From positions 12,237 through 76,236 of IMG/VR virus record IMGVR_UViG_3300014502_000005: a DNA stretch of 64,000 bases. The stretch is one strand, 5' to 3'. The notes below the pieces were generated by a model. It was not told where the DNA came from. It saw only the letters and a list, made by a program, of their open reading frames with translations, and did not search any database. The first letter of the stretch is position 1. Every line of letters begins with the position of its first letter. Position numbers and translations under genes: made by a program. This DNA comes from a virus. This document shows, piece after piece, positions 46,981 through 62,746 of this stretch.

Positions 46981-47306
46981 TTAATAGCTGGTCTATGATA
47001 ACAACTATAGGTAGGCATTAAATCTGATCCTAATCTTATTTCATGATATAAGATAGGGCTTATATTAGTAATTGTGATGTACTTATCTTTATCTATATTT
47101 AATATCCCCCACAAAATACCGTCTGAAGAGATTAAAAAATCGGATATATGTATTGGAGCATCTAGTTTTATTTTTAATGTATATATCCATTTTACTTCCG
47201 GAATTATTTTGAATATTTTACAAACTATACGTTGAATGAAAGTCAAGTTTAATACCTTAACTATACCTTCGGTATTTTGATAAGTTATTTTAAAAATGTT
47301 TTCCAT
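46977..47306 (-). CDS. hypothetical protein
   Basis: ORF in a tightly packed operon. Confidence 0.5.
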   Translation of the reverse strand: MENIFKITYQNTEGIVKVLNLTFIQRIVCKIFKIIPEVKWIYTLKIKLDAPIHISDFLISSDGILWGILNIDKDKYITITNISPILYHEIRLGSDLMPTYSCYHRPAIK

Positions 47307-47312
47307 AAATAT

Positions 47313-47603
47313 TTAATTTTTATTTATTGGTTTAAAATTATCAATGTTAATTTTATTTATGTTAATCAAATCGTCACTAATCAGTCCTTTTCTAAGTAAA
47401 AATTTAACTTTCCATTTAACAACATCTCTTTTAGCTTTACTTAATTTACTTGTCTTATTTTGAATCAATTTATATTCCTGAATGACATCGAGAACGTCTT
47501 TGTCTATTTCTTGTTTTTGTTCTATTTGTTCCTGTTTTGGTATCAACCAAAATACGGCGAATATTACGCCCATTGCCGTTATTAATAGTAGAAACGTCGT
47601 CAT
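47313..47603 (-). CDS. hypothetical membrane-anchored protein
   Basis: N-terminal hydrophobic segment. Confidence 0.55.
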   Translation of the reverse strand: MTTFLLLITAMGVIFAVFWLIPKQEQIEQKQEIDKDVLDVIQEYKLIQNKTSKLSKAKRDVVKWKVKFLLRKGLISDDLININKINIDNFKPINKN

Positions 47604-47605
47604 AT

Positions 47606-47788
47606 TTATTTTAATAAAATGTTAACTCCTCGTTTTTTTGGGATTACTTTTCCTAGTACTTCTTCTATTTCTTCGTTTGTAACACATTCGTGCTTGTTAC
47701 AAAGTCCAACTTTATAATTATTAGTATCTCTAATAATAGTGGCTTTACTTAAGCAATAAGCACAAAGTTCCTTAGTTATTTCTAGCAT
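47606..47788 (-). CDS. small putative Zn-binding protein
   Basis: CxxC...CxxxxC. Confidence 0.45.
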   Translation of the reverse strand: MLEITKELCAYCLSKATIIRDTNNYKVGLCNKHECVTNEEIEEVLGKVIPKKRGVNILLK

Positions 47789-48009
47789 TTAAATAAATCT
47801 TGTATAGTTACTTTTTCGCTTTCGGGAGCTATCTCCCATTCTAAAAAGTCTTTTTCAGTTACTTCTACAGGGCAAACAGGACTTAGCCCGTATCTTTTAG
47901 TGCTTAGGATAACGCCTGTTTCGAAAAACCCTTTAAATATTCCTATTTTGCCTGTTTTAGGGTCAATAACCTTGGCGTTATAGGGGTCTTTTAAATCTTT
48001 TATTTGCAT
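47782..48009 (-). CDS. hypothetical protein
   Basis: TAACTTTG motif upstream (48021-48028, minus strand). Confidence 0.55.
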   Translation of the reverse strand: MQIKDLKDPYNAKVIDPKTGKIGIFKGFFETGVILSTKRYGLSPVCPVEVTEKDFLEWEIAPESEKVTIQDLFKC

Positions 48010-48077
48010 TGATTTTTATTCAAAGTTAAATAGTATGTGGGTAATAATAAAATAATAAGATATGTTGTGCAACACTT

Positions 48078-49361
48078 TTAGAATTTAAGTCCTATTTTTT
48101 CTGATTTATCTAGTTCTTCTTGCACTTTATCTAGTATTCTTGTATTAAACACAAGATCATGTCCTTTAATTTGTTCTACGCATTTAATTATCTTTTTATA
48201 ACAATCTTCTAGCGAATCTCCAGCAGCGACTATGTCTAACGCTTCTGAAGATTGAGAAGGCTGAGGAATTAGGTAATACGTTCCTTTAGATTTCATTCCA
48301 AAACGAAACTTAACGTTATTTCTTATTTCTTCTGGGAAGTAAATGGGCAAAAAATTTTCTCTGAGGAAATCTGAATTACCAATTAGGATCACTCCATATT
48401 CATGAGTAAATTCAGGTTGAATTAAAATACCTTCTGCCCCAGACCAAATTATTTGGGCTAAGTTTTTTATCATTATTAATTGTAATGACAAGGGGGGTGC
48501 TCCGGCCCTACAGGTCTGATCTATAACGTAAGGGACTTTCTTTTTATCTATCCTAATTTCATTAGAATAAAAGTTACAATATTGTTTTTCCTTAAAATAC
48601 CAAGACAAATTATCGGTACATAATTTTATTGGTTTTGGCAATTTAGCGTATTCAAATACTTTTGCTGCATAACATTGGTCCTTAATCTCGATACCGCTCA
48701 ATACCTTGTCAGGTATTTGGCCGTCTATAATAATAGTATCTATACCAGTTTCTACAATACAATCAACAGGAGTTTCTACAATAAATTCTGTTATCTCTTT
48801 TATGGCCCCTAGCTCATTTTCAAGATGAGTTAATAACGGTTCTGATAGTTTATAGGTATCGTGCTTAAAACTCTCAAACAAACCTCTCCAATGGGATATT
48901 TTAATATAAAGTTTATCATGTGATTTTAAGTATTCTTTTAATTTAGTTATGCCTTTTATTTTGATGGTTTTATTTACAGGCATATTGCTTTTGGTCATTA
49001 TTCTTTTAGAATCATATCGATCTAATTCTAGCCATTGGCCTTCGCCAGAACCAAACACCCGCTTACCCATAGATCGAAGCAATCTTTCTATGTCCGAAAA
49101 GTAAAGTTCGGGGAAAATGAAAATATCAACTTTATCGAAATTGTAGTCTGAATTTTTATCTGAAGTAGAAAATAAGTAATCAATAGAATTTATTTCTTCA
49201 AATCCTACGCCAGATAATTCAGGAAATCTATCGGGGAACCCTCCGTAATTCCAAGGTGTAAAATAGTAAACTTTTTGGAATAATTTAGATAACGTGATAG
49301 CTAATTCTACGAACAGGCCGCAATCACAAACAACGGCTATTTTATTTTTTAAATTTTCCAT
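48078..49361 (-). CDS. ATP-grasp ligase, distantly PurD-like
   Basis: VFGSG...LELDR..SK, YIK, FIVE and YVIDQTCRAGAP motifs. Confidence 0.6.
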   Translation of the reverse strand: MENLKNKIAVVCDCGLFVELAITLSKLFQKVYYFTPWNYGGFPDRFPELSGVGFEEINSIDYLFSTSDKNSDYNFDKVDIFIFPELYFSDIERLLRSMGKRVFGSGEGQWLELDRYDSKRIMTKSNMPVNKTIKIKGITKLKEYLKSHDKLYIKISHWRGLFESFKHDTYKLSEPLLTHLENELGAIKEITEFIVETPVDCIVETGIDTIIIDGQIPDKVLSGIEIKDQCYAAKVFEYAKLPKPIKLCTDNLSWYFKEKQYCNFYSNEIRIDKKKVPYVIDQTCRAGAPPLSLQLIMIKNLAQIIWSGAEGILIQPEFTHEYGVILIGNSDFLRENFLPIYFPEEIRNNVKFRFGMKSKGTYYLIPQPSQSSEALDIVAAGDSLEDCYKKIIKCVEQIKGHDLVFNTRILDKVQEELDKSEKIGLKF

Positions 49362-49741
49362 TATATTTCATAATTTTCGTAATAATCACTCCATTCCAAT
49401 CCCATCTCATAACATAATTGCCTTTCTATATTTTCAGCAAAACGATGTTCTCGACGATATATGCAATCTGGCTCATTACCTGCATCGTCTGCCTTTCCGC
49501 CAACTTCTTGAACCTTTCTATCAAACGCATCTATGTCCTCCTCTTTAATCCCTCTCATATTTGTCAAGTGTTGTTCTATCATCTCGTGAAGTGCAATTAG
49601 CCAAGCATGATCATAAGAGGCTTCATCTTTTAAGTATGCCTTAATTATTATAACATCTTTATTTACAAAATAGTAGTCTCCAATGCCGCCATTTCTTATC
49701 TCATTAGGATTATTTGTAAATTGTATACGTATTTCTTTCAT
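49361..49741 (-). CDS. hypothetical protein with HExxE motif
   Basis: GDYY, LHEMIE and YRREHRFAE; start abuts and is coupled to the ATP-grasp gene. Confidence 0.55.
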   Translation of the reverse strand: MKEIRIQFTNNPNEIRNGGIGDYYFVNKDVIIIKAYLKDEASYDHAWLIALHEMIEQHLTNMRGIKEEDIDAFDRKVQEVGGKADDAGNEPDCIYRREHRFAENIERQLCYEMGLEWSDYYENYEI

Positions 49742-49760
49742 CTAGCAAAGGTATGTATTT

Positions 49761-50279
49761 TTATATTGGATTTATGCACCCAAAAGTTTCTATCATTATC
49801 CTGTCTATAGACCAATGCAAAGTCTGGCCATCTTTATGTAAGTGTAAAAGGTTATTAGTAGGTGTTTTTTTAGATCCTTTCATTAAGATTGTTTTGCCTG
49901 ATTTCCTTTTTATCATTCTCGTCATACTTCTTACGTTTCTTAGTGTAGAAACTTGATAATATCCTTCATAGCCAGGAATATCTTTCCAAGTTTCCTTTAG
50001 GATATTTTTTAAGTTTTCTATGTCTTCCGAATCCTTAGCATATAAGCTTGTCATTGCAATAACCTTTTTTATGGCTGCGTTTACAGAAGTTCGAGTTCTT
50101 CCTGCTAATTTTAGCCCTATCTCATCGTTTGACCCAACCTTAAACGCCTTACATAAAAACATTGCTTTTTGTCGGGCCTGGACTATTTCTCCTTTTTTTG
50201 TGGGAATGTTCAGCTCCCCAGGAACCATATTAAAGTATTTTTCAACTTCATTTTGTATTTTATCTATAGTTACTATCAT
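49761..50279 (-). CDS. DnaA C-terminal-like HTH fused to a NUMOD4 domain
   Basis: IVQARQKAMFL...EIG...RTSVNAAIKKV, then ETWKDIPGYEGYYQVS. Confidence 0.7.
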   Translation of the reverse strand: MIVTIDKIQNEVEKYFNMVPGELNIPTKKGEIVQARQKAMFLCKAFKVGSNDEIGLKLAGRTRTSVNAAIKKVIAMTSLYAKDSEDIENLKNILKETWKDIPGYEGYYQVSTLRNVRSMTRMIKRKSGKTILMKGSKKTPTNNLLHLHKDGQTLHWSIDRIMIETFGCINPI

Positions 50280-50283
50280 AAAT

Positions 50284-50340
50284 TAATATTTAAGTTTTTG
50301 ATCACAAATCTTTAAAATTTAATCGTGCACAATATTAATA
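50284..50340 (-). pseudogene. remnant of integrase 5' end
   Basis: translates HD*ILKICDQKLKY versus HDEILKICIQKLKY in 54473-55279, at the same distance from the attI-like core. Confidence 0.7.
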
Positions 50341-50341
50341 T

Positions 50342-50385
50342 TTAAATAATTATATGTAAAATTTTATATATAATAGTTATGTGTA
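50342..50385 (+). other. attI-like site B
   Basis: TTAAATAATTATATGTAAAATTTTATATATAATAG|TT differs at 2 positions from 55282-55318. Confidence 0.75.
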
Positions 50386-50388
50386 ACC

Positions 50389-50787
50389 TTAAACGGCTAC
50401 CGTGGATAGTCTTTCCTTAATCTGATTTGAGTTCAATATTTCGTCAAATCTAATAATAGAATCAATCATCCATTCATAACCACAAAAACCAGCAGAGTTT
50501 TTTCTTCTTTTATTGGCTTCTTTGGCATCAACTTGTTCAATCCTAACATTTGCACCCCAACCATCACCAAAGTTATAATAATGGCTTTTACTTGGTGGAG
50601 TATTACCAATTTCTCGTCTGGTAAAAAAGCCTTCATAAATCGGACTTGTTTTAGCATCTTCCATTATTTTGTCAGCAGTTTTATTGTCGAACTTTCTAAT
50701 AACAAAATATTTGCGTTCTGCGCCTGTCCATTTACCATTCCAACTACCTACATTTGGCATCGTTAATTCAAAAGATAATGTTTTCAT
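50389..50787 (-). CDS. hypothetical protein, cassette B1
   Basis: MPNVGSWNGKW...YNFGDGWGA...GFCGYEWM. Confidence 0.7.
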   Translation of the reverse strand: MKTLSFELTMPNVGSWNGKWTGAERKYFVIRKFDNKTADKIMEDAKTSPIYEGFFTRREIGNTPPSKSHYYNFGDGWGANVRIEQVDAKEANKRRKNSAGFCGYEWMIDSIIRFDEILNSNQIKERLSTVAV

Positions 50788-50826
50788 TTTTATAGTTTTA
50801 AGTTATTGATAATCATAATAAAAGGC

Positions 50827-50962
50827 TACACATAACACGCAATATAGTGCATGTGGGCTGTATCGGTTATTGAAAGTTTCTACATTCTATTATCGTTTGT
50901 GGTGGTTTGATAGGTCGGTGCTATTAATCCCACACGACACCATATTGCCACCGTTAGCGGTT
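50827..50962 (+). repeat. attC-like hairpin B1
   Basis: AAC-AC-GCAATATAGTGCATGTGGG...CCCACACGACACCATATTGC-CACC-GTT. Confidence 0.8.
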
Positions 50963-51325
50963 ATTAAGCCAGCCATACACCAACCTGCGAAATTCTGCAT
51001 CTGATTGTGTGCATCGTAATTTTTGAACATCTAATTTAGATAAGTCTGGACAATAAGCTGTTATTAATGCTTTCCAGCAATCCCTATAAGTTTGAGCCTT
51101 TGCATGAAATTTTATAGAATGTTGTTCCAATTTAGCTGTATCTCCAAGTTCATCGTATTTTCGTTGAAGTCCCTGCCAACTATTAATAAGTTCTTCAACT
51201 GCTTTTATTCGCAATTGCTTATTTAGTTCATTTATTTGCTCAGAATAACTAAGTTCAGACGTATCACAATTAACATCCGCCTTAATAGGCGTGTACCTTG
51301 TATTTTTAAGTTTGTGCGTTCCCAT
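50954..51325 (-). CDS. hypothetical protein, cassette B2
   Basis: stop codon in core GTTA. Confidence 0.6.
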   Translation of the reverse strand: MGTHKLKNTRYTPIKADVNCDTSELSYSEQINELNKQLRIKAVEELINSWQGLQRKYDELGDTAKLEQHSIKFHAKAQTYRDCWKALITAYCPDLSKLDVQKLRCTQSDAEFRRLVYGWLNNR

Positions 51326-51333
51326 AAATTTAA

Positions 51334-51618
51334 TTATTTAAAATATTCACACGTTTTACAAAAGTTTTTACTCTTAACAAAGCGACTGCACGCAGATTTA
51401 TATGGCCAATTACAGATTTTTATTTTAGTAATATCTCCATTAAACCTCCAAATCTGCTGCATGTGGTCAAACCAAATCTGTATATTATCAACAGAATAAT
51501 TGTTTTTTACGCAATATTCATCTATTTCACTTATAGTTGGTTCTTTATCAGTCATGCCTTCAATCCACATCTCATGCGGTTGAGTTCTATATGTTACATT
51601 TTCATCTTGTATATTCAT
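51334..51618 (-). CDS. hypothetical protein, cassette B2 (two-gene cassette)
   Basis: likely start MNIQDE; Cys-rich C-terminus. Confidence 0.6.
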   Translation of the reverse strand: MNIQDENVTYRTQPHEMWIEGMTDKEPTISEIDEYCVKNNYSVDNIQIWFDHMQQIWRFNGDITKIKICNWPYKSACSRFVKSKNFCKTCEYFK

Positions 51619-51646
51619 AATATTTTGATTTAAAATAAATAATAAC

Positions 51647-51743
51647 AACCGCTAACACCGTATATAAAACATGGCTTGACAGGTTCGTGCTTACTTGAAA
51701 CATTCGAGCAAAGCCACGTTTCATATACGAACCGTTAGTTGCC
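51647..51743 (+). repeat. attC-like hairpin B2
   Basis: AAC-AC-CGTATATAAAACATGGCTT...AAGCCACGTTTCATATACG-AACC-GTT. Confidence 0.85.
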
Positions 51744-52196
51744 ATTTAAAGAAACGTATTCATCGAGAAGTTCCAAAGCAACTTTAAGTTTATCGTAACC
51801 TATTTTTGAAATTACTTTATTGATAAATAAATCACGATTTGTAAAGTCAGCACCTTGTTGGTATAAGTGAAAATTAATAGGATAAAACTCTTCATCATCA
51901 CAATCATTTTCATCTAAATAACCCCCAAACGTTTCGCATAAATATCTTGCGATTTCAACTGAATTTCCCCACATTCCTAAACTTAACCAAACCCCTGCAA
52001 TACCGTTTTCACGTTCACAACTATTTGTAAAAGATATAGCAATGTTTCTTTTGTCTTTACCATCTTCAAAATTTACATACATGAAATCAGGTGCAGTTGC
52101 TCTAATTTCAGCATTACCATATTTTACAGCAATAGCATCTTTTATTTGCTCAATTGTTGTTCCTTTGCGAAGAATCGCTTTTGTATCTACTCCCAT
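51735..52196 (-). CDS. hypothetical protein, cassette B3
   Basis: likely start MGVDTK; stop codon in core GTTA. Confidence 0.65.
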   Translation of the reverse strand: MGVDTKAILRKGTTIEQIKDAIAVKYGNAEIRATAPDFMYVNFEDGKDKRNIAISFTNSCERENGIAGVWLSLGMWGNSVEIARYLCETFGGYLDENDCDDEEFYPINFHLYQQGADFTNRDLFINKVISKIGYDKLKVALELLDEYVSLNGN

Positions 52197-52238
52197 TGTT
52201 TTGTATTTTAAATTATTAATAATCAAATAAATAAAAAC

Positions 52239-52374
52239 GGAAACTAACACGTGCTATATGCCAGTTGGGTTTTATCGGTATTTGAATCGTTCTGCATCTA
52301 ATTTAGTTTTGTAAAGTTTGACAAATACGTGCTTCGTAATCCCAACCGGACACATAGCACCACCGTTAGCAAAC
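52239..52374 (+). repeat. attC-like hairpin B3
   Basis: AAC-AC-GTGCTATATGCCAGTTGGG...CCCAACCGGACACATAGCAC-CACC-GTT. Confidence 0.8.
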
Positions 52375-52377
52375 ATA

Positions 52378-52665
52378 TTAAGAGCCGAGTAATTTGATAC
52401 GAATCCACTTATAAAATGTGGTTGTGTCGGGTAAATAAAATTTGCCTTCGGGATGTGGATTTTCTTTCCTATATAAATCTTCTAAAGGTTTTAGTTCTTT
52501 AGTTGGTCGGGTAAATAGATTTTGTATTTGGTCACAATTTTGCTCAGAGTATTCATCCATTGCGGATAATAAGTTTTTTGATAAATATTCATTTTCAAAC
52601 TTAAACACTTCAAAATCAAATCCATTTCTATCTAATATTTGTTCTTTAGTTCTAATTTTTGCCAT
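52378..52665 (-). CDS. hypothetical protein
   Basis: 95-aa ORF downstream of dnaB. Confidence 0.6.
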   Translation of the reverse strand: MAKIRTKEQILDRNGFDFEVFKFENEYLSKNLLSAMDEYSEQNCDQIQNLFTRPTKELKPLEDLYRKENPHPEGKFYLPDTTTFYKWIRIKLLGS

Positions 52666-52683
52666 AATGTAAATATTTAAAGA

Positions 52684-54105
52684 TTAGTTAAACTCACTAT
52701 TAGGTTCAATAAACGAATTCGGGTCATAGTATTTATCTGATTTGCTTAAATACTTGCTATCGTCTTTGTAATCATAAATTTTTGTAAGCGATTCGTTGTA
52801 TCCAAAATAAACAGAACCTGTTTTGCCTTCTTTGTTTTTAGCTATTATAAGTTCGCCACGGCCTTTTGTATTGACACCATTTTCGTCTTCTAAAATTCCG
52901 TACTGTTCTGGCCTATATAATAACAATACAATATCTGCATCACCTTCAATTTGTCCTGATTCTCTTAGGTCGCTCATCATTGGCCTTTTGTCACTCCTAG
53001 ACTCCACAGAACGATTAATTTGAGAAAGTATAATAACAGGAACGTCTAATTCCTTTGCCATATTTTTACACTCTCTGCTCATAGCGGCTACCTCTTGTTC
53101 TCGATTACTATTCTTAGTCATTCCCTCTCCTTTGGCCAATTGCAAATAGTCTATTAAAATCATTGAACATCGTCCTTTTTTCTTTAGTATCCTAGACTTG
53201 CTCTTTATATAACTAATAGATATAGTTGACTTGTCGTTTATTACTATATCATACTTAGACAATTCGTACCTAGCATTAGAAATCATTGTCCATTCATGAG
53301 GCTCCATATACCCCATTTTATAATTATCGTAACTTACCCCAGCCTCTCCGGCAAGAATCCTATCAGCGATTTTAAGTTTAGTAGTCTCTAATGAATATAA
53401 ATTGGGCACACCTCCATTCTTAGCACATTCTTTCATGATAGAAATCGCCATAGCTGTTTTGCCCATCGACGGCCTAGCGGCAAGTACTATAAGTTCTCCC
53501 CCCTGCCAACCTCCTGTATATTCATTTAATATAGTGAGAGGGGTTTTTATGCCAATAACTTGGCCTTTTTTTCTTAGAACTTCCCGTTCGGCAGCTTTAT
53601 CCTCTGCTTCCTTTAGTAGTTTTGCAAACGTATCATTATTACTAGTCTCACCTAATATTTTATTTATAGGTTCGTCTATAGAATTAATAGAAAAACTCAC
53701 TAAATCATCTATGTCAACAGAGTCATCGAAAGCTTTGTTCATTATTTCATGGCCAGCTTTTATTAATTCTCTTTGCAAGTACTTTTGTTTTATAACACAT
53801 GATAAAAAAAGAATATTATCACTTATCTGGCTTTTTGCTAATAATGAACCTACGTAATATCGGCCTCCTACATCTTCTAGTTCGTTGTTTTTATTTAATT
53901 GTTCACAAGTTGTTAATAAATCTACAGGGTTATTTTTTGAGTTTAAATCTAATATTGCTTTAAATATTTTTTGGGTACAATCTTTGTAAAAATATTCTGG
54001 CTTCAGATCTATAGCTTCGTCTAAAAGAGAAGAGTCATAGATTATGTCTCCCAATATAGACTCTTCTATTTCTATGCACGAAGGAGGAACTTTATTTAGA
54101 ATCAT
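52684..54105 (-). CDS. dnaB: replicative DNA helicase
   Basis: AARPSMGKT Walker A; IDYLQL, LSQINR, DLRESGQIE and IAKNK motifs. Confidence 0.95.
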   Translation of the reverse strand: MILNKVPPSCIEIEESILGDIIYDSSLLDEAIDLKPEYFYKDCTQKIFKAILDLNSKNNPVDLLTTCEQLNKNNELEDVGGRYYVGSLLAKSQISDNILFLSCVIKQKYLQRELIKAGHEIMNKAFDDSVDIDDLVSFSINSIDEPINKILGETSNNDTFAKLLKEAEDKAAEREVLRKKGQVIGIKTPLTILNEYTGGWQGGELIVLAARPSMGKTAMAISIMKECAKNGGVPNLYSLETTKLKIADRILAGEAGVSYDNYKMGYMEPHEWTMISNARYELSKYDIVINDKSTISISYIKSKSRILKKKGRCSMILIDYLQLAKGEGMTKNSNREQEVAAMSRECKNMAKELDVPVIILSQINRSVESRSDKRPMMSDLRESGQIEGDADIVLLLYRPEQYGILEDENGVNTKGRGELIIAKNKEGKTGSVYFGYNESLTKIYDYKDDSKYLSKSDKYYDPNSFIEPNSEFN

Positions 54106-54466
54106 AATTTAGTCTTGAGGTTAGTAGATTAGTGGCAATTTTTTTTTGAACAGGAATTTGTTGTCGTCCGTAATTATTATCTTGTCTTTCCCAGGTTCGT
54201 ACTGCCGCTTTCCAGTCTTTCATTTTATTTCTACCGATCATCCAATTTTTTGCTTGGTAAAAGTCAACCCATTTTTCAGGATCGACATTGTTCGCCCTTT
54301 CTTTACAATAAACTGTCACTTCATCTATAGTAGGAGTAATAAAAATAGTCCTTGCTTTATATATATTCGGTTCGGGGAAAACTATATCACAATTGCATTC
54401 TACAACCATGGGAGAGTGTATTTTTTTGCAAACTGGACATTGCCAACCTTGAGGAATTTTTTTCAT
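54092..54466 (-). CDS. putative replication initiator/replisome organiser
   Basis: PTIDEV..YC.ER...FY...W..G...MKDWKAAVRTWE; directly upstream of dnaB. Confidence 0.6.
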   Translation of the reverse strand: MKKIPQGWQCPVCKKIHSPMVVECNCDIVFPEPNIYKARTIFITPTIDEVTVYCKERANNVDPEKWVDFYQAKNWMIGRNKMKDWKAAVRTWERQDNNYGRQQIPVQKKIATNLLTSRLNYDSK

Positions 54467-54472
54467 AGTCTA

Positions 54473-55279
54473 TTATATTGGTAACTGTATTTTGGATAAT
54501 GCCATATTAGACACATGTGTATATATTTCAGTAGTCTTTGAACTACTATGCCCTAATATTTTTTGAATGTATCGAAGGTCAACACCCGATTCTAATAAAG
54601 CAGTTGCAGAACTATGTCTTAATAAATGAAAATGATATTCTTTCCCTAAATAATATTTAACTAACTTATTACAACTTTCAGATGAATATTTAATTTTAAA
54701 TTGCCCATTAAACAAATATTCTTTTGGCTTAAAGGCTCTATAATATTCCCTGAATAAATTTAAAATATTTTGTGAAAGTGGAACTATTCTATCCTTTCTT
54801 CCTTTAGCTTGTCTTATTGTGATTAACATTCGCTTTGAGTCAATATCAATAATTTTAAGATTAATCACTTCACTAACACGTAATCCAACTGAATATGCAA
54901 GAGATAGTATTGATTTGTGTTTTAGATTTTGAATTTTGCATATCTTAGACAATAAAAATTCTTTTTCAATAACTTGTGGCAGATGTTTTTCTTTTCTTGG
55001 TCGCTCAAATGAAACTTTATCGTATTTTTTATTTAAAGTTTTTTCATATAAAAATTTGATTGCATTAATAATTTGATTTTGTTGGCTTATGGAAGAAAAG
55101 TTATAATTATTCAAATAAGATTTAAAATCATTTGCTATTAAATGTTGTGGATATTTATTAATATTAATTAAAAACTTTTTTATATAATGAATATAAATTT
55201 CAATTGTTCTTTCGGAATAATTGAAATATTTAAGCTTTTGAATGCAAATCTTTAAAATTTCATCATGCTTAGTTTTCAT
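54473..55279 (-). CDS. tyrosine recombinase (integron-integrase-like)
   Basis: NYSERTIEIY SAM-like N-domain; GLRVSE, KGRKDR, HLLRHS, LGHSS and TTEIYTHV give a full R-K-H-R-H-Y set. Confidence 0.9.
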   Translation of the reverse strand: MKTKHDEILKICIQKLKYFNYSERTIEIYIHYIKKFLININKYPQHLIANDFKSYLNNYNFSSISQQNQIINAIKFLYEKTLNKKYDKVSFERPRKEKHLPQVIEKEFLLSKICKIQNLKHKSILSLAYSVGLRVSEVINLKIIDIDSKRMLITIRQAKGRKDRIVPLSQNILNLFREYYRAFKPKEYLFNGQFKIKYSSESCNKLVKYYLGKEYHFHLLRHSSATALLESGVDLRYIQKILGHSSSKTTEIYTHVSNMALSKIQLPI

Positions 55280-55281
55280 AA

Positions 55282-55325
55282 TTAAATAATTATGTGTCAA
55301 ATTTTATATATAATAGTTATAGGCA
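55282..55325 (+). other. attI-like site C (adjacent to integrase)
   Basis: ATTTTATATATAATAG|TTATAGGCA about 37 nt upstream of the integrase ATG, in the intI/attI arrangement. Confidence 0.8.
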
Positions 55326-55328
55326 ATG

Positions 55329-55565
55329 CTAAGAACCGCCTTCGAGTTTATTTATCCTCGCTTCAAGCGCTTGTATGGTTTGCCATAAATTATGAATTTC
55401 TTCTTCATTTGATGGTCGTTGCTGTTCATGCAATTGTCTTTCTAAATCGTTTATTTTCTTTTGATTAAAACGATTGTCAATTTCATTACATTGCGACATT
55501 TCAGCATTTATCGCATCGTTTAAGTTCGGATAATAAGTTCCGTATAAATCATATCCACCTGCCAT
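55329..55565 (-). CDS. hypothetical coiled-coil protein, cassette C1
   Basis: fills the cassette. Confidence 0.6.
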   Translation of the reverse strand: MAGGYDLYGTYYPNLNDAINAEMSQCNEIDNRFNQKKINDLERQLHEQQRPSNEEEIHNLWQTIQALEARINKLEGGS

Positions 55566-55587
55566 AATTTATTGATTTAAAAAGCAC

Positions 55588-55723
55588 TGCCTATAACAAT
55601 ATGTATAGTTAATGGCGGGTGCTGTGGTTAATATTAAGTTTCTACTTTTCATTTACTTTTGTGCGTTTTGATAGGTTCGTGGTATTCAATCCGCCACTAA
55701 CCATACATTTAACGTTATGCGTA
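55588..55723 (+). repeat. attC-like hairpin C1
   Basis: AAC..ATGTATAGTTAATGGCGG...CCGCCACTAACCATACAT..GTT. Confidence 0.8.
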
Positions 55724-55724
55724 A

Positions 55725-55940
55725 TTAAACGCACGTTCCATTTTTGCAGTCTTTATAAGTTGCAAATTTTCTCGCTTTAGTTTCCTCAATTGATTCTAAT
55801 TTTACCGTAAACCCTTCGTTTGTGAGTTCAGTAAATTCTTTTTCGGTTTGCTTACCAATATAATCAATGTGAGAAGCTAATATAAATCCTTTGCATTTTT
55901 CGCAAATAGCTACTTTTGAAACTTTGCCTTCTGTTCTCAT
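55725..55940 (-). CDS. hypothetical protein, cassette C2
   Basis: CxxC motif. Confidence 0.6.
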   Translation of the reverse strand: MRTEGKVSKVAICEKCKGFILASHIDYIGKQTEKEFTELTNEGFTVKLESIEETKARKFATYKDCKNGTCV

Positions 55941-56167
55941 TTGTCGTTATCTCCTTTAATTAATTCTAATTGTCCTACGTAAATATCGCCACAATCAGTT
56001 TTAAAGTCTATTTTATGTTTTTTCAAAATAGTTCTAATACTAAATGGGCATAAGCATTCGTCTGGTTCTTTTACTTTTTTAGAAACATCAAAACCAAAAT
56101 GTTCTTTAAATTGCCTTGGGGTTGTTATTTCTTTTTCACCTCTATTTATTACTACAATTTTACACAT
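55937..56167 (-). CDS. hypothetical protein, cassette C2 (two-gene cassette)
   Basis: ATGA overlap with its partner gene. Confidence 0.6.
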   Translation of the reverse strand: MCKIVVINRGEKEITTPRQFKEHFGFDVSKKVKEPDECLCPFSIRTILKKHKIDFKTDCGDIYVGQLELIKGDNDK

Positions 56168-56191
56168 ATTATTGAGTATTAATAATTAACA

Positions 56192-56288
56192 TACGCATAA
56201 CACCGTATATAAAACATGGCTTGACAGGTTCGTGCTTACTTGAAACTGTGAAACAAAGCCACGTTTCATATACGAACCGTTATAGCCA
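56192..56288 (+). repeat. attC-like hairpin C2
   Basis: near-identical to B2 except in an 8-nt loop stretch and the outer core extensions. Confidence 0.85.
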
Positions 56289-56501
56289 ATTTAAGGAATG
56301 AGCCTTTCTATCAGCATTTTTTTGATTAATTGACCATAAGCTATTTTCACCGTAAAAGAATTTCTTCAATCCTTTTGCTCTATTAAATTCGTCTTCGTCT
56401 CTTACTTTAATTTCAGGTTCTGGCAAATCCATTATGTTTATCATTGGTGTTGCCATCGCCGCAAGTGCAGTTAACATGGCTAATTTTCTCATTTTTGACA
56501 T
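56280..56501 (-). CDS. hypothetical protein, cassette C3
   Basis: stop codon in core GTTA. Confidence 0.6.
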   Translation of the reverse strand: MSKMRKLAMLTALAAMATPMINIMDLPEPEIKVRDEDEFNRAKGLKKFFYGENSLWSINQKNADRKAHSLNWL

Positions 56502-56531
56502 ATATTTTAATTTAAGTTGTTAATAATAAAC

Positions 56532-56667
56532 TGGCTATAACAAGCGGTTTACGCAACCACCGTTTTATCTGTAATTTTAAAGTTTTCAGCATTTTATTAA
56601 GTTTTTAACGTGTGATAAATTCGTTATTATAATCGGTGGCTTCGCAAACCGCCGACCGTTAGTTTAT
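56532..56667 (+). repeat. attC-like hairpin C3
   Basis: AAC-AA-GCGGTTTACGCAACCACCG...CGGTGGCTTCGCAAACCGC-CGACC-GTT. Confidence 0.8.
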
Positions 56668-56982
56668 TCTTTTCCTTATCTCTTTAATTTCAATATCAGG
56701 ATATAATTTAAATACTTCTTTTTTTACATGCGTAATCTCAATGCCATTATTAAAAATAAGCCCATAATCATGAACAATCTTTCTTACTTCGAATAAACTG
56801 TTAACTGGCCTTTCAATCATATTGAAATATTGAACCCTGGTTTTGATTCCTATTTTTTCGCAAAGATCAAGAAGGGTAAAATACGAATCGTAGCTAATTG
56901 CAGGTACTTTAGTCCGGACCATTTCTTGTTTTAATAACTCCTGTTTTTCTTCTTTAGTTAGCTTGGAAAATGATGTTCTCAT
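56659..56982 (-). CDS. hypothetical protein
   Basis: last gene of the recombination operon; stop codon in core GTTA. Confidence 0.6.
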   Translation of the reverse strand: MRTSFSKLTKEEKQELLKQEMVRTKVPAISYDSYFTLLDLCEKIGIKTRVQYFNMIERPVNSLFEVRKIVHDYGLIFNNGIEITHVKKEVFKLYPDIEIKEIRKRIN

Positions 56983-57407
56983 GGTTGTTTATTTTGCATT
57001 GATGAGTAATTTGCATTTCTATTCATCTCTTTAGCTTGAGATATAAAAGTCCTCATTAATTCCATTTGATACTTACACTCTTTGTCTATCTCTGTAATCC
57101 AATTGACTAAGTAATTGTAATCCTTGCAGGCCGAATCAACAAGCTTATTTATAGTAGCCGGGGTTAAATGTTCTTGCAATTGTTTTTTTAGCAAATCCAT
57201 AATTTCGCTTTTAAGCAATTCGTCTTTATGATATTTACTATCCGCAAGCATTTTCCCAGTCCTAGCCATGAGACCGCCAAGCTCAGCAGCCCTATCGGAA
57301 CATTCTTTGCCTGAATCTACGTTATATCCTATTTTAAGATATTCGTGTACTTCTTTAGCTTCTTCAAAGAGTTCTTCGGGCAAAGTTATATTGTCGGGTT
57401 TAAACAT
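56979..57407 (-). CDS. hypothetical helical protein of the recombination module
   Basis: coiled-coil-like; operon context. Confidence 0.55.
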   Translation of the reverse strand: MFKPDNITLPEELFEEAKEVHEYLKIGYNVDSGKECSDRAAELGGLMARTGKMLADSKYHKDELLKSEIMDLLKKQLQEHLTPATINKLVDSACKDYNYLVNWITEIDKECKYQMELMRTFISQAKEMNRNANYSSMQNKQP

Positions 57408-57409
57408 AA

Positions 57410-57631
57410 TTATAAGCTATTTATTAGTTCTTCTTTACTATGGAAGCAATGTCTTTCTTCGACAATTTTACAGTCGTAGCCGCCATTTATATTTACATTT
57501 AAATATAGGTCTGTGCCAGTTAACCCCTTTCTAAATGTTACTTTAATAGAATCAATAGGAAATTCAGAAGCCTTGCCATCTAAAATAGTCCAAACTTTAT
57601 CAGACACGTTAAATTTAGTTTCTGTTTTCAT
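57410..57631 (-). CDS. hypothetical protein
   Basis: ETKFNVSDKVW...F.SKEELINSL motif recalled from Bacteroidota phages. Confidence 0.65.
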   Translation of the reverse strand: MKTETKFNVSDKVWTILDGKASEFPIDSIKVTFRKGLTGTDLYLNVNINGGYDCKIVEERHCFHSKEELINSL

Positions 57632-58614
57632 TGGTTCGATATTAGTTTATTAAATTCGATTAAGTCATTTAATTCTTTTGACGTTTCAGTCCACTCTTCT
57701 TCCAAAGTCTTACTAATTATTTCCGGTTTTTCGCCAGCTTTAGTAGTTCCTTGAAACGATTTACTAATAGGCGAGGGAAAGTACGACGCAGATGAGTTTA
57801 AGCAAATACCAAGCCTCTTTGCGGCTTCTAATGCTATTTTATCAGAATCCTCTTTATTCAAATACTTAAATTCAAATGTTGGGGACTTTGATTCATTCCA
57901 GTCTTTTGTCCTTACGATAGCTGTATTATCTGCTTGAAAATCATAGGTGGCATTCCACATGAAATTCTCACATGCAATTTGTTCTAATTGATGTCCTGAA
58001 ATTTGTGAAGAAGTTTTGATATTGATAGTCGTATTTACAAAAGCTCCTTTTTCGGTAGGACGGCACGAACATACAAGGTCTATTGGGGTAGCTATTTTCA
58101 TAGTTTCCCAAATGCACGGAGTTTCAATAGCATATATTTCATGAACACGTTCGTGAATAAACTGAAGCAAAGAAGCTACATGTTTACAATAATCGTATGA
58201 CATGTTCTTAATAGTTTTCATGTCAGGTTCTATGTTTTTAGCCTTATAGGCATTTATAAAATATTCATACGACCTATCCTTTTCTTCGCCCCAATCTATA
58301 CAGCCTTTTTCTTTAATTGTAACTAATGACATATGCAATAATGACCCAAAATCAGCTGTCATGTCAACGAAATCTTTAGTGTTCTTTTCTCCAAAACTAT
58401 CTATCATCGAATTTCTCCAGCCAGTTAAACGCTTAGCATCAGGATCGCCTTTAAAAGTGGCTGCGGACAATGCCCCGGTCAATCCTGAGTAATACTGAAA
58501 CGGCTGTTCTTGAATGTAAATCCTAAGCCCGTTAAAATTGACACGGAACATTTTAAGGAACGTGCCAATTTTTAACAAGTTTTCAACTTTCTCGATATTG
58601 GTTATTGATCCCAT
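57628..58614 (-). CDS. putative PD-(D/E)XK exonuclease-like protein
   Basis: GSLLH, AIE, PIDLV, INIKTS and QLEQ resemble a Cas4/lambda-exonuclease-like motif set. Confidence 0.5.
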   Translation of the reverse strand: MGSITNIEKVENLLKIGTFLKMFRVNFNGLRIYIQEQPFQYYSGLTGALSAATFKGDPDAKRLTGWRNSMIDSFGEKNTKDFVDMTADFGSLLHMSLVTIKEKGCIDWGEEKDRSYEYFINAYKAKNIEPDMKTIKNMSYDYCKHVASLLQFIHERVHEIYAIETPCIWETMKIATPIDLVCSCRPTEKGAFVNTTINIKTSSQISGHQLEQIACENFMWNATYDFQADNTAIVRTKDWNESKSPTFEFKYLNKEDSDKIALEAAKRLGICLNSSASYFPSPISKSFQGTTKAGEKPEIISKTLEEEWTETSKELNDLIEFNKLISNQ

Positions 58615-58642
58615 TATAATTTATTGATTTATAGGTGTTTGC

Positions 58643-59320
58643 TCAAAAAGGTAAATCGTCTGGCTCATTACTAATGTCAGGGGCGGCGTCTTCTATGTGA
58701 GACATATTTGGCTCCGCATTTTTACTGTTAAAGTGATTAGCAAAAAATTCATCAAATTGCGCTTTTAAAAACTTCTTAACTTTAATAAAGTATATCTTAG
58801 CGTCATCATCATCCTTAAAGTTAACGCCTTCTCCTGAAGGGAATTTATGCAATAGTTTCCAGGTTCCATCGGCTTGTTTTTGTTCATAATAAGAGCTTAT
58901 TTTTTGACCATCTTGCTCTATCGATAGTCCGGCCCTCCTTTTGCCTAATTTGTCCACGAAGTCATAGGCCGTTAGCTTTACTTTATTTGTCATATCTAAG
59001 TTTGGCAACTTCTTTAGGAAGTCGATGCAATTGCGATTAGTTTCCGATAAAGATAACTGATAAGTATCAGCAACGTCATTTAATGTTATTTCAAAAGAAT
59101 TGCCATACTGCTTATCCTCTTTATAAAAAATATTTTCAATAGTCCCACTTACAAAGTCGTGCTCTATCGCCCATGAGTCGGCTCCAGCTTGGGTTTGTCT
59201 TTTTACTGCGCCAGGCGTGTCTTTTTCCACCTTTTGCCTGTTTTCCAACGACTTCTGCCTTATCTTACCAAATCCAACTGTTAAATAAATCTTTGATGTT
59301 CCATTGTGTGATCCTAGCAT
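58643..59320 (-). CDS. putative single-stranded DNA-binding protein
   Basis: acidic C-terminal tail ending PDDLPF; next to the exonuclease. Confidence 0.55.
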   Translation of the reverse strand: MLGSHNGTSKIYLTVGFGKIRQKSLENRQKVEKDTPGAVKRQTQAGADSWAIEHDFVSGTIENIFYKEDKQYGNSFEITLNDVADTYQLSLSETNRNCIDFLKKLPNLDMTNKVKLTAYDFVDKLGKRRAGLSIEQDGQKISSYYEQKQADGTWKLLHKFPSGEGVNFKDDDDAKIYFIKVKKFLKAQFDEFFANHFNSKNAEPNMSHIEDAAPDISNEPDDLPF

Positions 59321-59358
59321 AATATTAAGTATTAAATTATTAATTATAATAAATTCTC

Positions 59359-59463
59359 TTACTCACCATCGGGGTCATATTCTTTTTCTTCCTCCTCGAC
59401 TTCATCTTTATCCCACCAAGGAGCATCTAAGTCGTAAAAAGAACCGATAGGATAGCTGTCCAT
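59359..59463 (-). CDS. 34-aa acidic peptide (absent from the ORF track)
   Basis: MDSYPIGSFYDLDAPWWDKDEVEEEEKEYDPDGE; TAATTTTG motif at 59485-59492 upstream. Confidence 0.5.
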   Translation of the reverse strand: MDSYPIGSFYDLDAPWWDKDEVEEEEKEYDPDGE

Positions 59464-59489
59464 AAATAGCAATTTTTAACAATTCAAAA

Positions 59490-59996
59490 TTACCTAATTT
59501 TACCCAACTTTTTCATTTTACGTATATGTTGTGTAACATCTTTCTTCGCCATATTTAATAATTTTTTATTAGTTATGGCACGGTCTTTAAATTGCTTAAA
59601 ATCTTTAGTTTTTCTTTTTATCAAAGATTGGAATACGCAAATGAAATAATCGAATTTTTCTTTATTTAAAGAGTAGCGGGCCATAAAGCTGTTATTGTGG
59701 GACTCAAACTTTATGTTGCTGGTATTGCTCACAAAAACAAAAAAGCCTTTTTCTGCCAATGATTTCATTGTATTATTTGCAGTGGTTTTATAAGCCATTT
59801 TATTTAAATGCTTATAAGAGATAGCCGCCAAATCCTTTTTAGTAAAAATATTATTAAAATTTTTATCGTTTTGCAAGCAAACAACGGCTAGTAAGTAGTT
59901 TAATTCTACATTACTTATTTTAAAAAAGAAATGTAAATCTGACAGTACAGATTCTGATATAAGATAATTTTCTGTGAAATTAAGTGGTGTTTTCAT
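59490..59996 (-). CDS. hypothetical basic protein, possibly winged-helix
   Basis: MKSLAEKGFF segment; Lys-rich. Confidence 0.45.
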   Translation of the reverse strand: MKTPLNFTENYLISESVLSDLHFFFKISNVELNYLLAVVCLQNDKNFNNIFTKKDLAAISYKHLNKMAYKTTANNTMKSLAEKGFFVFVSNTSNIKFESHNNSFMARYSLNKEKFDYFICVFQSLIKRKTKDFKQFKDRAITNKKLLNMAKKDVTQHIRKMKKLGKIR

Positions 59997-59999
59997 AGT

Positions 60000-60230
60000 T
60001 TATTCATTATCAATTATAAATTCAACTTTATCTATTTTTAACCGTTCTGTTTTTCTTTTTGCAGCTGCCGGATAAGATATTTTTTCACTTATCGAATAAT
60101 TGGTTAAAGTTTTTAACCCTAAAATAATAGAAATATCTTGAACAATTTTAATAAGTTATATATTTTCAACCTCACAATTATGTACACAAAACATTAATCT
60201 GTCGTATATTAATTCGCTTCTTGTCATCAT
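60000..60230 (-). pseudogene. small gene interrupted by an in-frame TAA
   Basis: MMTRSELIYDRLMFCVHNCEVENI*LIKIVQD...VEFIIDNE; internal stop at 60156-60158. Confidence 0.5.
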
Positions 60231-60250
60231 GGTTTAAAATTTTAAACTGT

Positions 60251-60272
60251 TGTAATAAGATAGTTAGCACCT
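60251..60272 (+). other. attI-like site D (diverged)
   Basis: TAATAAGATAG|TTAGCACCT; complementary to AGGTGCTAAC at 60488. Confidence 0.5.
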
Positions 60273-60274
60273 AT

Positions 60275-60556
60275 TTAATGAATCCAGCTCGTTAAATCGT
60301 GCCTAACCGATTGAAATGCTTTTACCATTCCATATTCTTTTGTGCATTTTTTACACCGATAATTAATTTCCTCTGTTGAAACTTCGCTATCTGGTACAAA
60401 GCATTCACTTGCTCCGCCTTTTTTCTTAAACTCTTGGCTATTTATATATCTCCCACATTTGTCGCACCGAATATCATAATAAAGAACAGGTGCTAACACA
60501 CGGTCATCAGCAATATCTGCCTTGCCTTGTGGATTGTTTTCTGCTAATTCTGTCAT
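60275..60556 (-). CDS. putative Zn-finger protein, cassette D1; starts inside the hairpin loop
   Basis: two CxxC motifs; the N-terminal ~23 codons are encoded by the att site. Confidence 0.65.
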   Translation of the reverse strand: MTELAENNPQGKADIADDRVLAPVLYYDIRCDKCGRYINSQEFKKKGGASECFVPDSEVSTEEINYRCKKCTKEYGMVKAFQSVRHDLTSWIH

Positions 60557-60615
60557 TTGTTTTTCAATTTAAATTTGTGAAGCAAATACTGCTGATACCG
60601 TCATCGTTAGCGTTC
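60488..60615 (+). repeat. attC-like hairpin D1
   Basis: AAC-AC-ACGGT(C)ATCAGCAATATCTGC...GCAAATACTGCTGATACCGT-CATC-GTT. Confidence 0.8.
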
Positions 60616-60618
60616 ATA

Positions 60619-61158
60619 CTAAGACCGTGCGTAACTTGCAAATTCCGAACCTCTATCACAAAATGATTTTACCATTGAGCAAACTAAGCCAAATGACATT
60701 CCAGAGTGTCCTTGTCCTTCAATAATTCCTTTTGCAACTTCCAATTCACAACCAGCATTCAATTCTTTTACTATGTCCAGTGTTGCTTTTAATTCCATAC
60801 CTCTGTATAAATCTCCCAATCTTATGGGAACGCATTCTCCCCAAGTTTCGTGGTATTTTTCGGCAAGTATATCTTTCCCTTTTTCAATCCATTCTTTTGT
60901 TAATTCTGGAATGGCTTCTTTGTGTTTTCTTTCTTCATCTTTGTATCGGTCATTGTCCGCTTTCATTTCAGCATCAAATTCCGCTTTAGTTTTCCCTGTA
61001 ATTTTTTTAAAAGCAAAATCCATATCATCAACATCGGAGTATAGTATTTGCCCGTTAAATGTGCCACAAACTAAATCTTTGTGTCTTTTAAGTTCTTTTA
61101 CTGCTTCTTCAATGGTTTCGCCAGCACTAAATTCAATTTCTCTGTAATTTGTTTTCAT
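60619..61158 (-). CDS. hypothetical phage protein, cassette D2
   Basis: RLGDLYRGMEL...QGHSGMSF motif. Confidence 0.7.
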   Translation of the reverse strand: MKTNYREIEFSAGETIEEAVKELKRHKDLVCGTFNGQILYSDVDDMDFAFKKITGKTKAEFDAEMKADNDRYKDEERKHKEAIPELTKEWIEKGKDILAEKYHETWGECVPIRLGDLYRGMELKATLDIVKELNAGCELEVAKGIIEGQGHSGMSFGLVCSMVKSFCDRGSEFASYARS

Positions 61159-61200
61159 ATTTTGATATTTAAAAGTTTAAAATTCGATTAATAAAAAGGC

Positions 61201-61300
61201 AGCCGATAACACGCAATAAAGCCCATTTGGCTGCGTAGTTTGGTGGTAACTTGACAAGTTTGTACAAGCCAAACGTGCCTTATTGCCACCGTTATAAGCC
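61201..61300 (+). repeat. attC-like hairpin D2
   Basis: AAC-AC-GCAATAAAGCCCATTTGGCT...AGCCAAACGTGCCTTATTGC-CACC-GTT. Confidence 0.8.
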
Positions 61301-61525
61301 ATTTAAAGAAGCCCGATTGTCCTTCTCAGATTTATCAATAGTTACTCCAATTATCTCATAAAATTCTTTATACTGAAAGGTTTCAATATACTTTTTAGCA
61401 TCTTTCTTCCTGAAAAATAACAATCCTGCAAAAACTTTATCTCCATCATAAAAAGTAATTTCTGTGTCAAATATCATGTTTTGCCAAATTGATTTCCCAT
61501 TGCGTTTTATTGCAAATGCTCTCAT
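61292..61525 (-). CDS. hypothetical protein, cassette D3
   Basis: stop codon in core GTTA. Confidence 0.6.
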   Translation of the reverse strand: MRAFAIKRNGKSIWQNMIFDTEITFYDGDKVFAGLLFFRKKDAKKYIETFQYKEFYEIIGVTIDKSEKDNRASLNGL

Positions 61526-61607
61526 AATAAAAATAATTAAAACGGCTTATAACACAGTGTATAGCCAATTAAAGCTGAGTATATCGCCATTGTTCATAAC
61601 GTTAACG

Positions 61608-62168
61608 TTATATATTAAAATTTTCAAATTTATGAAGATATCCTTTGATAGTCGCGTTCCCATCAGTAGCATTATCTCCGGTAAGAATAAAGTTTTTAAC
61701 CCCGCCTACTCCGCCCAAATGTGAAGCGGCCAGCATCCCAGATAAAGTTATTTTTACACCCCTAATTGTCTTGCCAATATATTTTGTAAGGTTGTTGTAT
61801 GCTAATATTTGCTTATTTCTTTCTAATAACCTAATCACACATTCTTTTTGTATTTTTCTGGAATTTAGAAATTGTCTTGTCGTTCCTTTATATCCTATAT
61901 CTTTTAGTGCGCAATCCATTAATTGCCAACGTCCCATAGCCCCTACACTATTTACTATTATCCAGGGATTATTAAATCCTTTGTAAGGGTAATACGTCGA
62001 ATCTTTTGTTTCTTCAAAGGCTAATTTTTCAAGGAATAATTCTAATTCTATTTTATCAATCACTTTTATTATTTTTATAATGTCATTAGTATTTGCTATG
62101 TCAGGAGCGTAAAGCTTAAAAGAAAAACAAAACAAAGCAATGGGTAGAATTAATTTCAAAATATTCAT
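61608..62168 (-). CDS. secreted lysozyme/transglycosylase-like protein
   Basis: signal-peptide-like N-terminus; E...GAMGRWQL and GMLAASHLGG motifs. Confidence 0.6.
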   Translation of the reverse strand: MNILKLILPIALFCFSFKLYAPDIANTNDIIKIIKVIDKIELELFLEKLAFEETKDSTYYPYKGFNNPWIIVNSVGAMGRWQLMDCALKDIGYKGTTRQFLNSRKIQKECVIRLLERNKQILAYNNLTKYIGKTIRGVKITLSGMLAASHLGGVGGVKNFILTGDNATDGNATIKGYLHKFENFNI

Positions 62169-62274
62169 AATTAATTTTTTAGTTAGTACTATTTTGTCGG
62201 TTCAAAATTACTTAAATTAAACTATAATTAATTATTGTTGTATATGTTTTAAAACATTGCTTTGTTTTGGATAA

Positions 62275-62478
62275 TTAACTGTAAAACAAGATTGCCGAAT
62301 CGTCGAAAGGTATCGGAGTAATTAATTGCTGATGCCAATGGGTAGATAGATCTAAAAAACATTGGTAATCTAGTTCTGATAACGTCCCCTTGGCCTTACT
62401 TTGTATTTCCCTACGCTCTTGTCTATTATTAGCTTTGCGGTAGCTAAAGAATAATTCGTCAATAATTGCCTGGTTCAT
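62275..62478 (-). CDS. hypothetical protein
   Basis: 67-aa ORF. Confidence 0.5.
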   Translation of the reverse strand: MNQAIIDELFFSYRKANNRQERREIQSKAKGTLSELDYQCFLDLSTHWHQQLITPIPFDDSAILFYS

Positions 62479-62493
62479 TTTGTTTATTTTTAG

Positions 62494-62667
62494 TTATTGA
62501 TTTAAATATGAAAATTTTATTTTATTGCCTTCTATGAATGTAAATAAAAAATGCTCTTGCGTTTTTTTTATTTGTGATCGGAGTATTTTGAAATATTTCA
62601 TTCTCACAAGATACTTTCTAAAAATAACGCTACCAGTAGAAGGGTCGTAAGTTGTCAAATGTTCCAT
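62494..62667 (-). CDS. hypothetical protein (57 aa, absent from the ORF track)
   Basis: MEHLTTYDPSTG...YLNQ fills the gap between neighbouring features. Confidence 0.45.
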   Translation of the reverse strand: MEHLTTYDPSTGSVIFRKYLVRMKYFKILRSQIKKTQEHFLFTFIEGNKIKFSYLNQ

Positions 62668-62746
62668 ATTTTGCGTATTTAAGGTTTAATTACAAATCTT
62701 TAAAAATATATCTTTTATAATATTGACTTTAAAGTAATTGTAATAT

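Follow-up and report, generated by a model that had tools for sequence, protein, structure and literature searches.

The DNA analysed here (the window, 64 kb) belongs to a single virus record of 76,236 bp, which is complete according to CheckV. A reading frame for a C5 DNA methyltransferase runs across the end and the start of the record (positions 63289–64000 of the window and 1–110 of the record), indicating that the genome is circular or circularly permuted; this frame has no obvious N-terminal motif I region. Genes for a terminase, a portal protein, and large virion proteins lie on the plus strand, and the minus strand carries a long series of small genes from approximately 45.6 kb rightward. 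The carrier is a complete, circularly permuted 76-kb tailed phage. The sequencing runs that contain this sequence are permafrost and peat metagenomes. A near-identical sister genome was found neither by megablast against phages nor in a scan of metagenomes, in which the top identity was 76%.

Among the minus-strand genes we identified an integrase gene (54473–55279, minus strand), followed downstream on the same strand by non-cassette genes (52684–54466) encoding a 124-aa ORF and a DnaB-type helicase. The open reading frame of the integrase extends from 54473 to 55300 and opens at a TTG codon; with the ATG at 55279, where the homologues start, the product has 268 aa. The protein is a simple tyrosine recombinase, composed of a SAM_4-like core-binding domain and a catalytic domain (Pfam Phage_int_SAM_4 and Phage_integrase), without the IntI-specific domain, and it is the sole tyrosine recombinase of the 76-kb genome. 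All six catalytic residues (R134, K159, H218, R221, H244, and Y253) are present, align with those of IntI1, and are invariant in 38 homologues. The length counted from the ATG and these residues agree with the original prediction, which had described a 268-aa tyrosine recombinase with intact catalytic motifs.

The IntI-specific domain is regarded as a requirement for recombining folded single-stranded sites, and searches for integrons are built on it. In the integrase, exactly 24 aa separate the motifs YLFNGQ and HLLRHS, as had been estimated, and the shortness of this segment had been taken as a sign that the IntI-specific insertion is absent. Compared with IntI1 and a phage-borne IntI from a Shewanella phage, the protein lacks approximately 45 aa at the position of this domain (about 45–48 overall), so the absence itself was upheld. 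Its location had to be corrected: in an alignment with IntI1, the phage-borne IntI, XerC, and XerD, the extra residues of IntI lie mostly before the LF motif (the ALERKYP...W..W block) and not just between the two motifs, and in this region the integrase is slightly shorter even than XerC and XerD. In an AlphaFold (AF2) model with a pLDDT of 88, residues 184–199, where the IntI helix would sit, form a loop alone. HMMER against the PDB matched VchIntIA (2a3v) in two pieces, with residues 186–220 of the query opposite residues 180–262 of the chain, and positions 178–255 of the TIGR02249 model had no counterpart in the integrase.

The structural model was most similar in Foldseek to VchIntIA (2a3v, E 6.7e-14) and then to archaeal XerA. 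The best curated profile match of the sequence was archaeal XerA (NF040815; structures 4a8e and 5hxy), which resembles the integrase in length and two-domain build and is approximately 28–30% identical; the score of 170 bits is nevertheless below the 220-bit cut-off of this family. The cut-offs for XerD (132 vs. 330 bits) and XerC (130 vs. 335 bits) were also missed, as were those of the IntI models (156.6 vs. 265 bits for TIGR02249 and about 107 vs. 435 bits for NF011946). These comparisons refer to the first member of the family, and a scan of 38 members provided the best E-value per family (5.5e-58 for TIGR02249). The idea that tools based on IntI profiles could miss the enzyme is therefore supported indirectly, by its scores against the curated IntI models. 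In a maximum likelihood tree, 41 phage and Bacteroidota proteins formed a clade of their own (SH-aLRT 98), separate from a clade of IntI1 and the Shewanella IntI (98) and from another of E. coli XerC and XerD (99); this was a quick tree with few outgroups, no XerA row, and a midpoint root, so that the lineage can be called a sister of IntI only tentatively. The alignment, the profiles, and the tree agree in placing the integrase outside the IntI clade and without the insertion, in accordance with the distinct lineage that had been proposed.

To the right of the integrase, the intergenic regions contain imperfect inverted repeats with TAAC at one end and GTTA at the other, which fall into two size classes, of 85–88 and 116–127 nt. 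Ten complete and two degraded hairpin sites were recognised, all within 46.1–63.3 kb, and 16 TAAC...GTTA inverted repeats were counted against 0–6 in shuffled sequences. A covariance model built from the ten complete sites, whose E-values reach 1e-24, confidently identified another 67 sites when applied to related loci. In the alignment of these 67 sites, 93.5% of the cells were paired and 224 double-sided changes were observed, compared with 73 in shuffles; the TAAC/GTTA box was invariant, and a G.T pair was found beside it in 62 sites. The excess over shuffled sequences, the scores of the covariance model, and the covariation together indicate that the hairpin sites are not a product of chance. 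The loops of the hairpins (51676–51692, 56221–56237, and those of the others) share the conserved plus-strand motif TTGAYARRTTCGTGCTT; its spacing is not that of a sigma-70 promoter, and the genes lie on the opposite strand. It was also observed that the 85-nt hairpins at 51647–51743 and 56192–56288 are near-identical except for a short stretch of the loop; their cassettes and outer 6 nt differ, and contigs of the source-sample assembly break at both.

The minus strand folded better than the plus strand at the ten sites, because the mismatches of the helix are G.T on the minus strand and A.C on the plus strand. All sites have an asymmetric internal loop (4–5 nt vs. 2–3 nt) together with the G.T pair beside the box, and an extrahelical G is present in two of the ten. 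In the top strand of the class 1 attC sites of dfrA12 and aadA2, the spacer is shorter near R'' than near R', and the left arm contains an extra C; the plus strand of the phage sites shows the same spacer asymmetry and, in two sites, the extra C. Since the asymmetry of the arms is that of real attC sites, the plus strand corresponds to the top strand and the minus strand to the folding bottom strand, an assignment that also agrees with the docking site lying to the left.

This docking site is an attI-like platform between the integrase gene and the first cassette (55280–55325, without an assigned strand), in which an AT-rich conserved motif is followed by GTTA (55316–55319) and by the 6 nt of the first cassette (55320–55325). 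The GTTA is located 37 nt upstream of the integrase ATG, the site is not a hairpin, and positions 55320–55325 are complementary to the left box of the first hairpin. Given that the gene runs leftward and that the hairpins at 55588–55723, 56192–56288, and 56532–56667 lie on the other side of this GTTA, the integrase is transcribed away from the attI-like site and the array, as the original prediction stated. In approximately 20 related loci, the junction consists of a variable 6 nt, TAAC, and TAYWATATATAA on the coding strand, 37–55 nt before the ATG; its integrase side is conserved and its other side is specific to the cassette. The conserved motif appears to resemble the −7 promoter box of Bacteroidota, so part of its conservation may come from transcription, and the platform probably also holds the integrase promoter. 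Four further docking sites are present in the window, at 45637, 50367, 62755, and, in a degenerate form, 60255, and each heads a short array. Two of the satellite docking sites, including the platform of array B, share approximately 100 nt with the 5' end of the integrase gene and its docking site. In low-depth contigs of one sequencing run (X1), positions 55064–55171, in the 5' part of the integrase gene, are joined to 62201–62492 in both directions with a few other letters between them, which may reflect a co-occurring relative or recombination between the platform of the integrase and a satellite platform.

The array adjacent to the integrase (array C, 55317–56661, plus strand) contains three cassettes with minus-strand orphan ORFs at 55329–55565, 55725–55940, 55937–56167, and 56280–56501. 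Its attC-like hairpins, all assigned to the minus (folding) strand, are located at 55588–55723 (124 nt from TAAC to GTTA, 108 bits), 56192–56288 (short class, 85 nt), and 56532–56667 (124 nt, the last of the array). Array B (50367–52374, plus strand) starts with a satellite attI-like GTTA at 50376–50379 and includes hairpins at 50827–50962, 51647–51743, and 52239–52374. Array A (45637–46591, plus strand) has its attI-like GTTA at 45646–45649, a hairpin at 46130–46268, and a degraded hairpin at 46498–46591. In array D (60255–61616, plus strand), the degenerate attI-like sequence GTTAGCACCT at 60263 is followed by hairpins at 60488–60615 and 61201–61300 and by a weak one at 61544–61616. Finally, array E (62755–63285, plus strand) comprises an attI-like GTTA at 62764–62767 and a hairpin at 63151–63285, after which the DNA methyltransferase gene is found. 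Two listed ORFs overlap hairpins of these last arrays: 62765–63295, with a GTG start, overlaps the hairpin at 63151–63285 and is probably not a gene, and 60275–60556 overlaps the hairpin at 60488–60615, its start being probably further downstream.

Consecutive sites are linked by their ends: read in reverse complement, the 6 nt that follow the right GTTA of one site correspond to the 6 nt that precede the TAAC of the next. Beyond the box, eight adjacent pairs of sites in the window match at 5–6 of 6 positions, and non-adjacent pairs at about 2. The complementarity is complete (6/6) at the three borders of array C, that is, from the docking site to hairpin 1, from 1 to 2, and from 2 to 3, and reaches 6/6, 6/6, and 5/6 in array B. 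In related loci, 43 adjacent pairs match at 6/6, and one locus (L026) has chains of ten or more. By analogy with integron cassettes, complementary chained ends of this kind are the signature that would be left by units that circularise and recombine within the box. The border of array D between 60609 and 61207 is mismatched, which counts against an integron-like reading.

The cassette ORFs yielded no informative function in Pfam or PHROGs. Both here and in the phage relatives, every one of them is encoded by the bottom (folding) strand and directed toward the integrase, unlike the cassettes of classical integrons, which are read on the top strand and away from attI, from a promoter located at the platform. 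A few recur in the arrays of other phages: the ORF at 60619–61158 of array D has a counterpart with 72% identity in the array region of one related locus (L008), and a methyltransferase related to that of array E sits between two hairpin sites in another (L012).

More than 100 related proteins are 66–82% identical to the integrase and have 263–270 aa, and 1,611 cluster representatives are related to it at E ≤ 1e-30. In approximately 45 distinct related phage contigs of 34–350 kb, nearly all hairpin matches were located upstream of the integrase gene and on its coding strand. This was the case for 107 of 109 covariance-model matches in 28 IMG/VR loci and for about 61 of 65 in 37 further metagenome loci, some of the related loci being duplicates of one another. 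These counts support the expected tie between close homologues and hairpin arrays. The neighbouring genes differ among the carriers (a tRNA synthetase, an RNA ligase, TnpB, or a DnaB-like protein), and given this variety and that of the carrier sizes, the linkage between integrase and array is not accounted for by one conserved backbone. In a 208-kb viral contig (L003), two TnpB genes (IS605 OrfB/Cas12f-like; 2072–3343 and 17988–19229) flank the region of the integrase and the array.

Distant relatives of the integrase are carried by about one-third of 401 Bacteroidota genomes, a sample drawn from the whole phylum. These chromosomal proteins are 41–49% identical to it, often have 350–480 aa with an N-terminal extension, and lie beside chained hairpin arrays; in Flavobacterium cellulosilyticum the chained hairpins are 116 nt long. 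The layout of these loci (L037, positions 9770–14386, from F. cellulosilyticum, as well as L033, L064, L137, and L142) is opposite to that of the phage clade, with the array located downstream of the gene and the ORFs encoded by the top strand.

Population variants were read from contigs. A contig of another sample (X4) follows the window to 51737, the last base of a GTTA, and contigs of a second such sample (X7) follow it to 55717/55718, again the last base of a GTTA; in both cases unrelated sequence continues from there. Breaks at hairpins were likewise seen in contigs of the probable source sample. Another X4 joint, from 46135 to 51653, connects the left flank of one hairpin with the body of another at their shared left TAAC. 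Given that the canonical model places the crossover at the right GTTA only, this joint counts against the main reading.

The organisation described here shares several features with that of integrons such as those of IntI1 and V. cholerae IntIA (2a3v). Transcription of the recombinase gene leads away from the docking site, whose sequence is conserved toward the integrase and varies with the cassette on the opposite side; mostly orphan units of one or two genes are each closed by an imperfect AAC...GTT hairpin with the arm asymmetry of attC; the end of each site is complementary to the start of the following one; and the N-terminal domain of the enzyme is of the SAM_4 type, as in IntI. In contrast to integrons, the extrahelical G is present in just two of the ten phage sites, five docking sites occur in one genome, and the system is phage-borne; its enzyme, as described above, has no IntI-specific domain, misses the IntI cut-offs, and does not branch within the IntI clade. 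Complete integrons are almost absent from Bacteroidetes in IntegronFinder surveys. In virulent phages, including Polaribacter phage P12002L, clusters of attC sites without an integrase (CALINs) have been reported; no integrase was found with them, and they were treated as stray components of bacterial integrons, although IntI1 recombined a hairpin-type site of P12002L in vivo (Qi et al. 2023, PMC9892861). These clusters resemble the present arrays in being hairpin recombination sites located between small genes and methyltransferase genes, in phages of Flavobacteriia; the arrays of the present phage, in contrast, come with a docking site and with a dedicated recombinase that is not an IntI. 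We did not find a description of a cassette system with such a short recombinase in the literature searched, most of which lay outside subscription journals.

These observations could be accounted for in other ways. The protein might be an ordinary lysogeny integrase, in which case the site beside the gene would be attP and the hairpins an unrelated feature of the early region. PHROGs files it under integration and excision, simple integrases without an arm-binding domain do integrate (that of Brujita, 5vfz, was among the matches), and the integrases of Freya, Leef, and Ingeline have been interpreted in the literature on flavobacterial phages as markers of a temperate lifestyle (PMC8776804). 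However, no prophage of the phage-integrase clade was seen in the 401 sampled Bacteroidota genomes, nor was there a copy at least 55% identical, the best being 51%, and this last result argues against a role in lysogeny. In a sample of 185,579 species genomes, the sole match of at least 60% was a 2-kb MAG contig that carries a hairpin upstream, and integrases with 60–80% identity occur in phages of very different kinds, some of them probable jumbo phages. Five docking sites, chained cassette ends, and one-sided arrays would not be accounted for by an attP either, and we consider this explanation very improbable. A Xer- or Cre-like resolvase of phage replication multimers, acting at the site beside the gene, would be in keeping with the simple two-domain architecture, with XerA as the top profile match, and with the location of the gene in a replication module beside DnaB, here and in one related locus (L005). 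XerA acts at a single dif site for chromosome resolution, and to our knowledge no cassette arrays are associated with it. The site beside the integrase is not a two-armed, dif-like palindrome but a half-conserved junction whose other side varies with the cassette; one site would suffice for resolution, without need for hairpin arrays of fixed polarity relative to the gene. Considering also that the neighbouring genes are not conserved and that the scores are below the XerA, XerC, and XerD cut-offs, we regard this as the least probable of the explanations considered.

Another explanation would be that the hairpins are RNA-level elements of early transcripts, involved in processing, stability, or attenuation, or self-mobile repeats moved by another enzyme, with the integrase travelling along. 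Since the folding strand is the coding strand, transcripts carry the hairpins with G.U pairs, and the G.T wobbles could instead act at the level of RNA; the loop motif is conserved, and TnpB genes are found near one related array. However, the hairpins are unlike intrinsic terminators: eight terminator-like sites were counted against nine expected, none of them at the hairpins. Neither the terminator scan nor the promoter scan revealed an enrichment, and Rfam gave no match over positions 45000–64000. Neither a HUH transposase nor a second recombinase was found in the window. Moreover, RNA elements would need neither cassette-specific complementary ends nor a shared junction beside a recombinase gene, and the recombination of the P12002L site by IntI1 also speaks against this explanation, which we consider improbable; a dual role of the hairpins, in RNA and in recombination, is possible. 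The chained ends, the half-conserved junction, and the one-sided arrays are not explained by lysogeny, multimer resolution, or an RNA role alone. The simplest account is an integron-like cassette system operated by a recombinase lineage without the IntI domain, and we consider it probable that the integrase is the cassette recombinase of such a system, its catalytic role being deduced from the linkage in the genomes, the structure of the junctions, and the variants between populations.

According to the mechanism that we propose for this cassette system, the enzyme would bind the TAAC/GTTA box of the imperfect hairpins formed when the minus strand is single-stranded, and it would also bind, as a duplex, the docking site that precedes the ATG of its gene by 37 nt. 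One strand would then be exchanged between the G and the TTA of GTTA (top strand), and replication would resolve the product. In this way, cassettes would be gained at the docking site or lost by excision between two hairpins. We infer the integrase as the catalyst, the single-stranded substrate, and the exact position of cleavage from the features described above. VchIntIA reads extrahelical bases through the region of the I2 helix. Since this region is absent from the phage enzyme, and since two of the ten sites have the extrahelical G, recognition would have to differ from that of VchIntIA; strand choice would presumably depend on the asymmetric internal loop and the conserved G.T wobble instead of extrahelical bases read by the I2 helix. 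Extending this proposal, we are slightly inclined to believe that the lineage represents a second, I2-less kind of integron recombinase, nearest to IntI and archaeal XerA, which would be widespread in the chromosomes and phages of Bacteroidota, would read the asymmetric loop and the G.T wobble, and would allow phages to swap early accessory genes (among them methyltransferases and, probably, genes for counter-defence) with each other and with their hosts.

These results suggest that gene capture of the integron type can be driven by an enzyme other than IntI. If this is true, the IntI-specific domain would not be essential for gene capture at hairpin sites, and a large share of the cassette systems of a major bacterial phylum and its phages would be invisible to current tools. 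Phages would own a dedicated device for shuffling early genes, and the small 268-aa enzyme and its compact sites would be available for testing how hairpin substrates are recognised. The integrase genes of flavobacterial and other Bacteroidota phages, now taken as evidence of lysogeny, would also be read differently.

The closest cultured relatives are the Polaribacter and Cellulophaga phages Freya, Leef, and Ingeline, whose integrases of approximately 270 aa are 35–39% identical to that of the present phage (39% for Freya). Like the present phage, they have small genes on the same strand upstream of the integrase; in contrast, the intergenic hairpins of Freya and Ingeline match the site model weakly. 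In P12002L, which lacks an integrase (L058, positions 29248–32287), weak matches to the model were found on the coding strand, for example at 32217–32287. These matches are suggestive of Freya, Ingeline, and P12002L as members of the same system. Among isolates of Polaribacter phage Freya (Freya_10, Freya_1, and Freya_6; L052, L054, L055, and L056), the flanks are 99.8% identical, but the gene blocks immediately upstream of the integrase vary, the differences amounting to 1 to 7 small genes, with a common right-hand breakpoint approximately 65 nt before the integrase ATG.
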